From assembly GCF_055900595.2 (NCBI RefSeq), contig NZ_CM148325.1: a stretch of DNA of 64,000 nt. One strand, written 5' to 3'. The notes under the pieces were generated by a model. It worked only from the letters and a program-made list of their open reading frames with translations. It was not told the origin of the DNA and did no database searches. Both the position numbers and the translations under genes were made by a program. This document shows positions 26,496 through 47,150 of the stretch, one piece after another. Each line of letters opens with the position of its first letter. Within the stretch, counting starts at the first letter, position 1.

Positions 26496-26968
26496 ACCTC
26501 AATCTCTCTGACCGTTCCGCCCTCTTCTTTGAATTTTGCAATCAGGCTGTCAGCCTTATGCTCGAACTGACCATAACCAGCCCCCGGCAGTGAAGCCCAG
26601 ATATTGCTGCAACGGTCGATAGCCTGACGGATATCACCGCGATCAATCATCGGTAAAGCGCCACGCTCTTTAATCTGCTGCAATGCCACAGCGTCCTGGC
26701 TTTTGGGAGAGAAGTCTTTCAGGCCAAGCTGCTTACGATAGGCATCCCACCAACGGGAAAGAAGCTGGTAACGTCCGGCTGCTGTTGATTTGAGTTTGGG
26801 GTTTAGCGTGACAAGTTTGCGAGGGTGATCGGAGTAATCAGTAAATAGCTCTCCGCCAACAATGACGTCATAACCATGATTTCTGGTTTTCTGACGTCCG
26901 TTATCTGTCCCCTCTGACCACGCCAGCATATCGAGGAACGCCTTACGTTGATTATTGATTTCCACCAT
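26492..26968 (-). CDS. R: Endolysin, lambda R-type lytic transglycosylase
   Basis: 158 aa, [39 protein letters not shown]..., near-identical to my recollection of lambda R. Confidence 0.95.
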
Positions 26969-27275
26969 CTTCTACTCCGGCTTTTTTAGCAGCGAAGCGT
27001 TTGATAAGCGAACCAATCGAGTCAGTACCGATGTAGCCGATGAACACGCTCGTTATATAAGCGAGATTGCTACTTAGTCCGGCGAAGTCGAGAAGGTCAC
27101 GAATGAACCAGGCGATAATGGCGCACATCGTTGCGTCGATTACTGTTTTTGTAAACGCACCGCCATTATATCTGCCGCGAAGGTACGCCATTGCAAACGC
27201 AAGGATTGCCCCGATGCCTTGTTCCTTTGCCGCGAGAATGGCGGCTAACAGGTCATGTTTTTCTGGCATCTTCAT
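26952..27275 (-). CDS. S: Holin, lambda S-type (dual-start MKMPEK)
   Basis: 107 aa, [39 protein letters not shown]..., as lambda S107/S105. Confidence 0.95.
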
Positions 27276-27597
27276 GTCTTACCCCCAATAAGGGGATTTG
27301 CTCTATTTAATTAGGAATAAGGTCGATTACTGATAGAACAAATCCAGGCTACTGTGTTTAGTAATCAGATTTGTTCGTGACCGATATGCACGGGCAAAAC
27401 GGCAGGAGGTTGTTAGCGCAGCCTCTTGCCACCCGCTTTCACGAAGGTCATATGTAGAAGGCCGCAGCATAACTATCACTGATGAATTCAGGATAGCCAG
27501 TGGCTACGGCTCAGTTTGGGTTGTGCTGTTGCTGGGCGGCGATGACGCCTGTACGCATTTGGTGATCCGGTTCTGCTTCCGGCATTCGCTTAATTCA

Positions 27598-28102
27598 GCA
27601 CAACGGAAAGAGCATTTATGGCTCGCATCGCGGGAAAAAGCCCACGGTAGAGAGTCGAACTCTACAAATACTCTTACCTGTTGTGCGCTCCGTTTCGTGG
27701 AGCTAACGGCGACGCTAGTACCGGTCTATGCGTCGCACCCTTGAGGGATTTACTAAGGCGACATGCCCGTTGTTACCCACTCAATTGGACCCTCCCCGTC
27801 GCCATCTGGGTCTAGTCAGGAATCGAACCTGCCGAGGGTACATTTGAATGGGTGCCCATTATTAATCACACCGGGCCAGTGCGCCGAATTTGGTAGCGGG
27901 GAGTCGGAAGACCCCGTGATTTTGGTTTCTTAGGCCGCCATCAACATCAAATCATCGTTTGCATTTATCTTTGTGGTCAGTTTCTAAAAACCCGCAAAGT
28001 CGCCAACTCTGACGAAAACTATCGTTGTGCTGCCACAACGATAAGAGCACTCGGTGCATTTAAGCCAAGCCCCATAAGGGAGAATGCTCTTACCTGTTGT
28101 GC
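27598..28102 (-). ncRNA. ORF-free structured late-leader segment containing a 416-bp insertion (candidate structured RNA or decayed tRNA-like island)
   Basis: The 16-mer CTCTTACCTGTTGTGC is duplicated at 27671-27686 and 28087-28102. Each copy has its own complementary arm (27598-27614, 28032-28049). The interior carries T-arm-like GGTTCGATTCC and TAGAG-TTCGACT-CTCTA plus several 6-9 bp stems. No credible ORF. Confidence 0.3.
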
Positions 28103-28105
28103 AAA

Positions 28106-28137
28106 CGCAAAAAGCCCTGAGCTATTAACTCAGGGCT
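28106..28137 (-). terminator. tR'-type terminator of the short PR' leader transcript
   Basis: Minus strand reads AGCCCTGAG-TTAATAG-CTCAGGGCT then TTTTTGCG, about 30 nt downstream of the predicted PR' start. Confidence 0.75.
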
Positions 28138-28165
28138 TTATTTAACGAGTGCATTTATCCATCGT

Positions 28166-28201
28166 TGAGTCAAATTTACCCAACTTTATTCAATAAGTCA
28201 A
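28166..28201 (-). promoter_or_regulatory. Late promoter PR' with qut region
   Basis: Minus strand reads TTGACT-17 nt-TAAATT followed by TGACTCAACGATGG. This matches my recollection of lambda PR'/qut, just downstream of Q. Confidence 0.7.
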
Positions 28202-28243
28202 TATCATGCCGTTAATATGTTGCCATCCGTGGCAATCATGCTG

Positions 28244-28867
28244 CTAACGTGTGACCGCATTCAAAATATTGTCTGCGATTGACTCTTCCTTGTGGCATTG
28301 CACCACCAGAGCGTCATACAGCGGCTTAACAGTGCGTGACCATGTGGGTTGGGTAAGGTTGGGGATTAGCATCGTTACAGCGCGATATGCGGCGCTTGCT
28401 GGCATCCTTGAATAGCCGACGCCTTTGCATCTTCCACACTCTTTCTCAACAACTCTCCCCCACAGCTCTGTTTTGGCAATATCAACCGCACGGCCTGTAC
28501 CGTGGCAATCTCTGCATCTTGCGCCCGGCGTCGCGGCACTACGGCAATAATCAGCATAAGCGAATGTTGCGAGCACTTGCAGTACCTTTGCCTTAGTATT
28601 TCCTTCAAGCTTTGCCACACCACGGTATTTACCCGATACCTTGTGTGCAAATTGCATCAGATAGTTGATAGCCTTTTGTTTGTCGTTCTGGCTGAGTTCG
28701 TGCTTACCGCAGAATGCAGCCATACCGAATCCGGCTTGTGATTGCGCCATCCCCATAGCAGCCATCACATCAGTACCGGAAAGGGAGTCAGAAGCCGTGG
28801 CCCGTGGTGAGTCGCTCATCATCGGGCTTTTTGGCGAATGAAATTTAGCTACGCTTTCGAGTCTCAT
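28244..28867 (-). CDS. Q: Late antiterminator Q (lambda-type)
   Basis: 207 aa, [39 protein letters not shown]..., as lambda Q. Confidence 0.95.

Positions 28868-46947: not shown

Positions 46948-47150
<203 letters not shown>

Follow-up and report, generated by a model that had tools for sequence, protein, structure and literature searches.

The prophage in the 64-kb window analysed here (the whole stretch of 64,000 nucleotides from contig NZ_CM148325.1, to which all coordinates refer) carries, in the late leader between Q and the holin gene S, a conserved RNA element that we term the core. As judged by comparative analysis, the core appears to be a headless transfer-messenger RNA (tmRNA) coding piece, with a tag reading frame under selection and a wide distribution among enterobacterial phages. 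Our preferred reading, to which we assign a probability of about 0.5, is that the core is a phage-borne derivative of such a coding piece that is decoded as a tag template and relies on a tRNA-like function provided in trans. An earlier note on this DNA, made from its letters alone, had drawn attention to the segment as structured and free of open reading frames (ORFs), but missed its main element, a message domain of the tmRNA type in which the reading frame for the tag is conserved. The core and the modules around it lie on the minus strand; loci used for comparison are designated by numbers of the type L001.

27854..28023, minus strand: core, tmRNA-like RNA without a tRNA-like domain (TLD), comprising 5' domain, tag frame, stop helix and two pseudoknots, 170 nt
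27963..28023, minus strand: 5' domain of the core, (GAU)AGUUUUCG, small variable hairpin, CGACUUUGCGG..UUUUUAGAAAC..ACAAAGAUAAAU; ends in the resume context UAAAU
27930..27962, minus strand: putative tag frame, GCA AAC GAT GAT TTG ATG TTG ATG GCG GCC TAA, i.e., ANDDLMLMAA-stop
27917..27944, minus strand: stop helix (helix-5-like) around the final codons of the tag and its stop; covariation CUGG/CCAG, CUGA/UCAG, UGA/UCA
27884..27916, minus strand: pseudoknot a, stem CGGGG/CCCCG; loop CCGA pairs with downstream UCGG; 7/9 pairs changed on both sides
27854..27883, minus strand: pseudoknot b, stem CGCAC/GUGUG; loop GCCC pairs with GGGC after AUUAAUAAU

The tag reading frame of the core

The first clue to the core came from weak matches to tmRNA models on AUAAAUGCAAACGAUGAUUUGAUGUUGAUGGCGGCCUAA when Rfam was searched in E-value mode; on the tag region, tmRNA_permuted matched at E=0.023 and beta_tmRNA at E=0.011, and these matches were repeated in other loci. 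Exact-pattern scans of IMG/VR then provided 126 distinct core variants. The tag frame consists of 10 codons followed by UAA or UAG in 76/76 distinct tag segments (177 loci), and all 17 tag peptides, which include ANDDLMLMAA, ANEEMYLAVA, and ANDEQFLAVA, fit the pattern A-N-[DE]-[DEQ]-x-[YFMV]-[LM]-x-[AV]-A. Synonymous changes are found at codons 4-10 (GAA/GAG, GUU/GUG/GUA/GUC, UUC/UUU, CUG/UUG, and GCC/GCU/GCG, among others), and the sixth codon is chemically conserved while variable in nucleotides (AUG/UAU/UUC/UUU/GUU). The other two frames are unconserved and reach a stop after 2-15 codons; in 10 variants they contain none within the 68 nt read. A more distant copy, in the ViI-like phage Cba120, reads GCU AAU GAU AAC ACG UUC CUG GCA GUA GCU UAA (ANDNTFLAVA) and thus adds synonymous changes in codons 1 and 2 (GCU AAU). 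Such codon-level conservation speaks for reading of the frame by ribosomes.

With regard to how reading would start, the resume context UAAAU stands directly 5' of GCA throughout the IMG/VR copies, and the Cba120 copy has AUAAUC at this position; in E. coli SsrA, the tag ANDENYALAA is preceded by the resume context AUAGUC. Upstream of the tag, we found neither a conserved start codon nor a conserved Shine-Dalgarno sequence, and 1-nt indels in this region break any longer frame. Two candidate start sites were considered and rejected, namely an in-frame upstream start, which these indels disrupt, and an AUG-initiated ORF in the +1 frame (such as MQTMI-stop or MQTKKCIWQ-stop), the length of which is unconserved. 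The presence of a resume context where a conserved start codon and Shine-Dalgarno sequence are missing argues for a trans-translation-type start over ordinary initiation.

RNA structure of the core

The earlier note had proposed a search for covarying homologs, and among 72 homologs covariation was found in the stop helix and in both of the tandem H-type pseudoknots of the core. In the 72-sequence alignment, 95.7% of the cells in the 22 named pairs are paired, as compared to 85.1 +/- 0.4% after column shuffling (0/500 shuffles reach the observed value) and 32-46% in slid controls; changes on both sides of a pair occur at 14/22 pairs (188 cells). Pseudoknot b, for example, is found with the alternative pairings CAG/CUG, AUCC/GGAU, CCCUGA/UCAGGG, and GGCGGGAG/CUCCCGCC. 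The single-sequence folding energy of the core is no better than that of shuffled sequences (z=0.17), as is usual for pseudoknotted RNAs; the structure of the core is supported by comparative data, not by folding energy.

The 5' domain is the most sequence-conserved part of the core, which also has a conserved unpaired segment, CUUUGCGG. It occupies the position of the tmRNA pseudoknot PK1, upstream of the resume codon, and shows no clean covariation; a possible CUUUG/CAAAG pairing is shifted in register in one subfamily. A processed form of the core would end near ..AAUAAUGGGC.

Distribution and genomic setting

A blastn search of 50,697 GenBank phage records with a 173-nt core query identified the core in 463 records (Salmonella, 192; Klebsiella, 107; Escherichia, 95; Erwinia, 24; and others). 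Carriers include Drexlerviridae (CS01), HK620, P22-like phages, lambdoid phages, Ackermannviridae (Cba120), 72-kb podophages, and SJ46, and comprise virulent (CS01, T1-like) as well as temperate (HK620) phages; in these records, the core stretch is usually unannotated, occasionally labelled as a hypothetical protein, and almost never described as an RNA gene. The core is also present in 136/5,426 complete E. coli genomes (2.5%), always in the chromosome and never annotated. Our view of the host range rests on these phage and E. coli collections, as a scan of genome contigs with a pattern of 14 specified bases yielded essentially chance matches and 2 unrelated tmRNAs.

Within phage genomes, the core is a regular member of tRNA islands. 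At approximately 14 loci it begins 7-10 nt after a consensus σ70 promoter (TTGACA-17-TAGATT), with no upstream hairpin, and is followed by a hairpin and then by tRNA-Ser, -Arg, and -Met genes; possession of its own consensus promoter indicates that the core is a gene in its own right. Another large family (contigs of 55-99 kb) shows a terminator, the core, and two tRNAs in this order, and in lambdoid and P22-like phages the core is located between the terminator tR' and the holin gene, as in the window. CS01 (L456), a T1-like phage with an own-promoter core, also encodes a polynucleotide kinase, an RNA-repair-type enzyme (27042-27527).

These data bear on the possibility that the core is a relic, i.e., the decaying remnant of a two-piece tmRNA among recombining hairpins, with only a structural role in transcript stability or leader spacing. 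While the loss of the part essential for tmRNA function and the rampant module shuffling in the surroundings would fit this explanation, the core is kept in unrelated phage families, virulent and temperate, across the 463 records; its helices remain intact through compensatory changes over the 126 distinct variants, the frame is intact in every distinct tag segment, and some phages have provided it with a consensus promoter. We therefore regard a relic as decidedly improbable.

Relationship to known tmRNAs

To place the core among known systems, we compared it with phage two-piece (permuted) tmRNAs, which are known from marine phages, e.g., the OM43 phage Melnitz (PMC9004378). A pattern scan for GTTTCGAC-N40-70-AAATGCAAACGA retrieved >120 environmental phage contigs from IMG/VR, and ARAGORN called 92 permuted (two-piece) and 5 standard tmRNAs at the scanned loci, with tags including ANDEQFALAA, ANDERFALAA, and ANDNAFLMAA. 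At E<10, an nhmmer profile built from the enterobacterial core matched 115/120 of these loci, with a best value of E=5e-9; the match covers profile positions ~40-135 and runs from the resume context through the tag and the stop helix to the first pseudoknot. The two-piece phage layout begins with ..UUCUGGAC, a T-arm, CANCUCC-A-CCA (3' acceptor strand and CCA end), and a linker hairpin and continues with GAU-GGGGNUG (5' acceptor strand, G3-U70), ..GGUUUCGAC, PK1, and UAAAU followed directly by GCAAACGA...

The coding piece of these RNAs resembles the core in having UAAAU followed directly by GCAAACGA, a 10-codon tag of the AND..-type that ends in AA or VA, a stop codon located in a helix and then a pseudoknot, and, near the 5' end, the motif (A)UAGUUU(U)CG..CGAC, which belongs to the D-loop region of the two-piece RNA. 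By contrast, the core lacks the 5' acceptor strand GGGGNUG (G3-U70) that precedes this motif in the two-piece coding piece, as well as the upstream acceptor piece (T-arm, CANCUCC-A-CCA) of the two-piece tmRNA; it also has a different 5' domain in place of PK1 and a second pseudoknot at its 3' end, and its hosts are Enterobacteriaceae, whose own tmRNA is one-piece. These similarities show the core to be homologous to the coding piece of phage two-piece tmRNA, and the lack of both the 5' acceptor strand and an acceptor piece makes it a headless relative of that piece. The ..UUUCG-(small loop)-CGAC.. junction could have arisen when one deletion removed everything between the T-arm and the D-loop in a permuted gene.

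E. coli SsrA shares with the core a message-like domain with an alanine resume codon and an AUA-type upstream triplet, a similar tag (ANDENYALAA in SsrA, ANDDLMLMAA in the core), and a string of H-type pseudoknots after the ORF; SsrA (363 nt as compared to ~170 nt) possesses a whole tRNA-like domain and helix 2, which the core does not.

Among the phage tmRNAs covered by census papers, which are limited to those of mycobacteriophages, Bacillus phage G, and the TLD-only RNA of mycobacteriophage DS6A, the last is thought to be inhibitory by titrating SmpB (PMC4131195, PMC11915505). The DS6A RNA, like the plastid tmRNAs without a coding sequence, is comparable to the core as a truncated tmRNA derivative, in the case of DS6A also a phage-borne one; however, the two truncations are opposite, as it is the tag frame that is gone from the DS6A RNA and the tRNA-like domain that is gone from the core. 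This parallel raises the possibility of a decoy, i.e., an untranslated RNA that mimics the message and pseudoknot part of tmRNA and soaks up a factor binding there (ribosomal protein S1, secondary SmpB sites, or RNase R), such that host trans-translation would be damped or redirected late in infection, in a mirror image of DS6A. We rank a decoy next after the decoded tag template, although as a rather unlikely explanation. The absent tRNA-like domain, the conserved resume context and pseudoknots, the high expression predicted from the late transcript or own promoter, and the precedent of a truncated phage tmRNA thought to titrate SmpB (PMC4131195, PMC11915505) are all consistent with it. A decoy needs, however, no fixed 10-codon frame, no restriction of the stop to UAA or UAG, no synonymous third positions, and no sixth codon that conserves the type of residue; were the core a decoy, the conserved frame would have to be accounted for in some other way. 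Moreover, SmpB binds mainly the tRNA-like domain, and it is this binding part that is missing from the core.

The late leader and its modules

In the window, the core is one of several structured modules that are located between tR' and S, in the following arrangement.

28244-28867: Q
28173..28201, minus strand: late promoter PR', TTGACT-17-TAAATT, from a consensus scan; downstream of Q and near-identical to lambda PR'
28106..28139, minus strand: terminator tR', 13-bp stem and U tract, readthrough only with Q; also found upstream of hairpin A in many homologous loci
28032..28102, minus strand: hairpin A, lambda-type, long; 5' arm 28102-28085, loop 28084-28050, 3' arm 28049-28032
28019-28044, minus strand: small alternative hairpin CGUUGUG-GCAG-CACAACG, then UUUUCG; terminator-like score
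27776..27852, minus strand: hairpin C, CCCAUUCAA...UUGAGUGGG; encloses T-arm-like CAGG-UUCGAUU-CCUG; L004 has compensatory CGGG/CCCG
27687..27778, minus strand: module M2, GGGUAACAACGGGCAUGUCGCCUUAGUAAAUCCC..GGUG, hairpin GCGACGC/GCGUCGC, hairpin GCUCC-ACGAAAC-GGAGC
27598..27686, minus strand: hairpin B, the second of the lambda type; within its loop, T-arm-like GUAGAG-UUCGACU-CUCUAC and a further hairpin, CGUGGG/CCCGCG
26952-27275: S (holin gene), then R and Rz

The position of PR' and tR' directly upstream makes the segment part of the Q-antiterminated late leader that precedes S, R, and Rz. Every feature that the earlier note had read from the letters could be reproduced. On the Q/PR' side and from ~27600 down to S, the flanks match lambda near base for base, and lambda has a single copy of the long hairpin in the same place (L001 989-1066). 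Both copies of the 16-mer GCACAACAGGTAAGAG are present on the minus strand (28102-28087 and 27686-27671) at a spacing of 416 bp, where a repeat search identified a 20-nt direct repeat with 95% identity and the same 416-bp spacing, and each has its own complementary 3' arm (TGCTCTTATCGTTGTG, 28049-28034, and TGCTCTTTCCGTTGTGC, 27614-27598); the 3' arms of the two lambda-type hairpins, which are both long and imperfect, follow the consensus TGCTCTT(A/T)(T/C)CGTTGTG. The reported stems (GCGACGC-N14-GCGTCGC, GGCGAC...GTCGCC, CGGGG-N10-CCCCG, and AGCTCC-ACGAAAC-GGAGC) and T-arm-like motifs (CAGG-TTCGATT-CCTG, 27831-27817, and TAGAG-TTCGACT-CTCTA, 27664-27648) were all located, the latter representing a recurrent type of hairpin with covarying stems, and a credible ORF is indeed absent from the segment, as the longest ORFs (35-73 aa) are unconserved between loci, with a best PHROG match of E=0.0025. 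A single 416-bp insertion, on the other hand, is not what the comparison supports; rather, the segment is made up of separate modules, joined in a chain, between which recombination takes place at common hairpin arms, and comparison with ~190 homologous loci gives the order hairpin A, core, hairpin C, M2, and hairpin B on the minus strand. This comparison shows the Q-S leader of lambdoid phages to be an array of RNA-gene cassettes.

The earlier note had left the choice between a decayed or recombined tRNA island and a distinct structured RNA delivered on every late transcript, and of the two it is the second that fits better. A tRNA island is suggested by the slot, which is the one used by tRNA genes in related phages (many homologous cores lie within ~1 kb of genuine same-strand tRNAs, e.g., for Ser, Arg, and Met), and by the T-arm-like motifs found in it. 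The Stx-type lambdoid tRNA islands between Q and the lysis genes use this same late-transcript slot, and many relatives have the core and real tRNAs arranged co-linearly; the window differs from them in having no tRNA genes, its cargo being a tmRNA-like RNA and other structured modules. The segment could not be folded into a canonical cloverleaf previously, and our data agree: ARAGORN found 0 genes, and Rfam in E-value mode returned no tRNA match in 27300-28500. No tRNA-like alignment was obtained at any threshold tried, nothing in the segment aligns to a known tRNA gene with inactivating deletions, as a degenerate remnant would, and the core has a tag frame and pseudoknots instead of cloverleaf elements. 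Descent from a tRNA island is thus largely refuted for the core, the least probable of the explanations considered here, and could apply only to the two T-arm hairpins.

The lambda-type hairpin is a recurrent spacer between RNA genes, including the core, M2, and real tRNAs. Across loci, its arms are conserved, including a bulged A and a U.U mismatch, while its loops are hypervariable and range from 35 to ~190 nt; the loop of hairpin B, for instance, is reused in L056 as the loop of the upstream hairpin. The same arms border genuine tRNA genes in other phages, e.g., as ..NCCA followed immediately by GCACAACAGGTA, and the hairpin may be a processing site or a recombination linker. The T-arm-like stems covary (CAGG/CCUG, CGGG/CCCG, AGGG/CCCU, GCGG/CCGC, and AUGGG/CCCAU) and keep the loop UUCGANU, although these hairpins are not obligatory partners of the core. 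In addition, the small hairpin CGUUGUG-GCAG-CACAACG shares sequence with the 3' arm of hairpin A, with which it competes, and also extends into the 5' end of the core, which points to alternative pairings in the leader.

Module M2 recurs, in the window and in L431-L454, as GGGUAACAACGGGCAU.UCGCCUUAGUAAAUCCC..GGUG and two hairpins, of which one is variable and the other has a loop, ACGAAAC, that never changes and a stem that covaries; M2 also likely contains a pseudoknot. We found M2 in 46 viral contigs, of which 20/46 have no core in up to 420 nt of upstream sequence (in 4 of these 20, the sequence ends within 150 nt), and it has no Rfam match. M2 is therefore an independent, conserved, and unclassified structured RNA of late leaders that occurs with or without the core.

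Several further observations were made on these leaders. In L028, L045, L064, L068, L084, and L087, the hairpin loop just 3' of the core (UGCGCGC-CUGACGA-GUCC AUGAG GGAC-GAAA-CGC AUUA GCG-UC|GCGCGG) fits a minimal hammerhead ribozyme by eye; despite this convincing appearance, the hammerhead in these six loci falls below the Rfam gathering score, and we did not retain it as an assignment. A further long-range stem, GUGCUG...CAGCAC, follows hairpin B directly (27598-27515, minus strand) in lambda and in the window, with a phage-variable interior, and a homologous stem, GTGGTGAATGCGCAGGCTGATGCGC...GCCGGAGATCAGCACCGGCCACCAC, follows the hairpin in other loci. A small conserved ORF, MKSCNATQGFDNP(T/N)KFREEWDRQTKEA, is located between tR' and hairpin A in L031, L023, L021, L037, L081, L431, and L449. 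Finally, outside of the leader, Rfam identified naRNA4 (RF02564, a nucleoid-associated ncRNA/REP-type element) at 47000-47070 on the minus strand with 71.9 bits, above the gathering score. The T-arm hairpins, M2, and the hammerhead-like loops, taken together, suggest that hairpins could serve as processing devices that free RNAs from the long transcript.

The missing tRNA-like half

ARAGORN, which was run on the window and on core loci L002-L109, L455, and L456, found no tRNA or tmRNA anywhere in the window. A number of results weigh against the core being a decoded tag template, most of which concern the missing tRNA-like half. The acceptor stem, the T-arm, and CCA are all absent from the core; ARAGORN identified no tmRNA in any enterobacterial-type core locus scanned, with real tRNAs found near some of them, and the complete genomes of HK620 and CS01 contain no tRNA, tmRNA, or credible T-arm with NCCA. 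Cooperation with the host molecule by base pairing found no support either, as the core shows no excess of complementarity to the whole of E. coli SsrA (94/300 shuffles were as good) and the idea that the 5' domain of the core, which looks similar, invades helix 2 of SsrA had to be rejected, since 224-479/500 shuffles equalled or bettered its pairing with the 3' strand of that helix. Scores of the core remain below the Rfam gathering scores (22.9-26.3 bits vs 47 for RF04321; 11.7 vs 47 for RF00023); at gathering score, Rfam returned nothing in the segment and elsewhere only tRNAs, int-alpA, and naRNA4. In addition, codons 7-10 of the tag also lie inside a helix, such that part of their conservation is structural. 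Lastly, we know of no mechanism that would bring a message domain into the ribosome unless a tRNA-like domain is attached to it, covalently or by base pairing. The single tmRNA call made by ARAGORN at these core loci (L104) was discarded as spurious, as it borrows a tRNA-Met.

One way of supplying the missing half would be a complete two-piece tmRNA, in which the T-arm hairpins C and B are excised, receive CCA from the CCA-adding enzyme of the host, and pair with the core, or in which, in other phages, CCA-ending tRNA-like RNAs serve as the acceptor piece. This explanation, which we consider improbable, is consistent with the recurrence of T-arm-like hairpins with covarying stems beside the core and with the two NCCA-ending tRNA-like elements of Cba120, which ARAGORN does not call; a need for CCA addition would have a parallel in the tRNAs of T4. 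A scan for the acceptor piece (T-arm, 7 nt, N, and CCA, i.e., a 7-bp acceptor stem and an NCCA 3' end) gave, however, nothing credible in the window, HK620, or CS01, and only ordinary tRNAs around all loci. HK620 and CS01 have the core and no T-arm-like hairpins. Where a 5' acceptor strand would be expected, the bases before AGUUUUCG are unconserved and differ by context (UGGCAGAU, CUUUCCGAU, CUUUCC, UUUCAGG...), and the T-arms in the window continue into CUAGACC-C-AGA and CGUGGGC-UUU, for which there is no complementary 5' strand; no G3-U70 candidate was found.

In Cba120 (L455 826-2995), a 2.1-kb ORF-free RNA island of this ViI-like phage contains the core and then two tRNA-like elements, the first ~75 nt after the core, which end in ...CUCCAAU-C-CCA and ...AAACGGC-U-CCA; ARAGORN calls neither. 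One of the two has a GAAA-capped 7-bp arm where an anticodon arm would be expected.

Taken as a whole, these searches show that tools keyed to the tRNA-like domain, such as ARAGORN and tmRNA covariance models, miss this class of RNA.

Proposed mode of action

Under the decoded tag template that we favour, the core of the window prophage would be transcribed within the Q-dependent late leader and would probably be cut out by means of the flanking long hairpins and the T-arm hairpins. Ribosomes would then decode the core as a tag template in a trans-translation-type reaction, with translation resuming at GCA after UAAAU; the peptide ANDDLMLMAA, which resembles the SsrA degron ANDENYALAA, would be added to the nascent chain, and translation would end at the UAA within the stop helix. 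An alanyl-tRNA-like function would have to come from elsewhere, most plausibly from host Ala-tmRNA with SmpB. In SsrA degrons, SspB binds the AAND..(aromatic or hydrophobic) part, and ClpX and ClpA recognise the hydrophobic end. Core tags keep both the AAND..(aromatic or hydrophobic) part and a hydrophobic ..AA or ..VA end, which makes it plausible that the core tag directs proteolysis.

A different route to the same product would be template switching independent of a tRNA-like domain, in which the headless RNA docks on a ribosome that has stalled where a broken mRNA ends and threads UAAAU and the adjoining GCA into the empty mRNA channel. The positioning that the ring provides in tmRNA would fall to the pseudoknots and the 5' domain, perhaps aided by free SmpB; GCA would be read by an ordinary Ala-tRNA, and a degron specified by the phage would extend the nascent chain; in a weaker form, host Ala-tmRNA/SmpB would be hijacked and only the template replaced. 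We regard this route as a long shot in comparison with the decoded tag template served by a tRNA-like function in trans.

Significance

To our knowledge, every trans-translation system described requires that the tRNA-like function be joined to the message-like one, either within a single molecule or through base pairing of two. We found no description of a TLD-less tmRNA-like phage RNA in the full-text literature, coverage of which is sparse for subscription journals, such that a prior description is possible. Although only the message half is left in the core, the tag frame shows the evolutionary pattern of a translated gene. If the frame is translated, either there is a way into ribosome rescue that has gone unrecognised or the tagging system of the host is reprogrammed by phages; if template switching were true, phages would run their own tagging system without an aminoacylated tmRNA. 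If, on the other hand, the core were a decoy, it would represent a new anti-tmRNA strategy that is complementary to that of DS6A. Either reading is testable in well-developed systems, namely E. coli with HK620 or T1-like phages and ssrA or smpB mutants.

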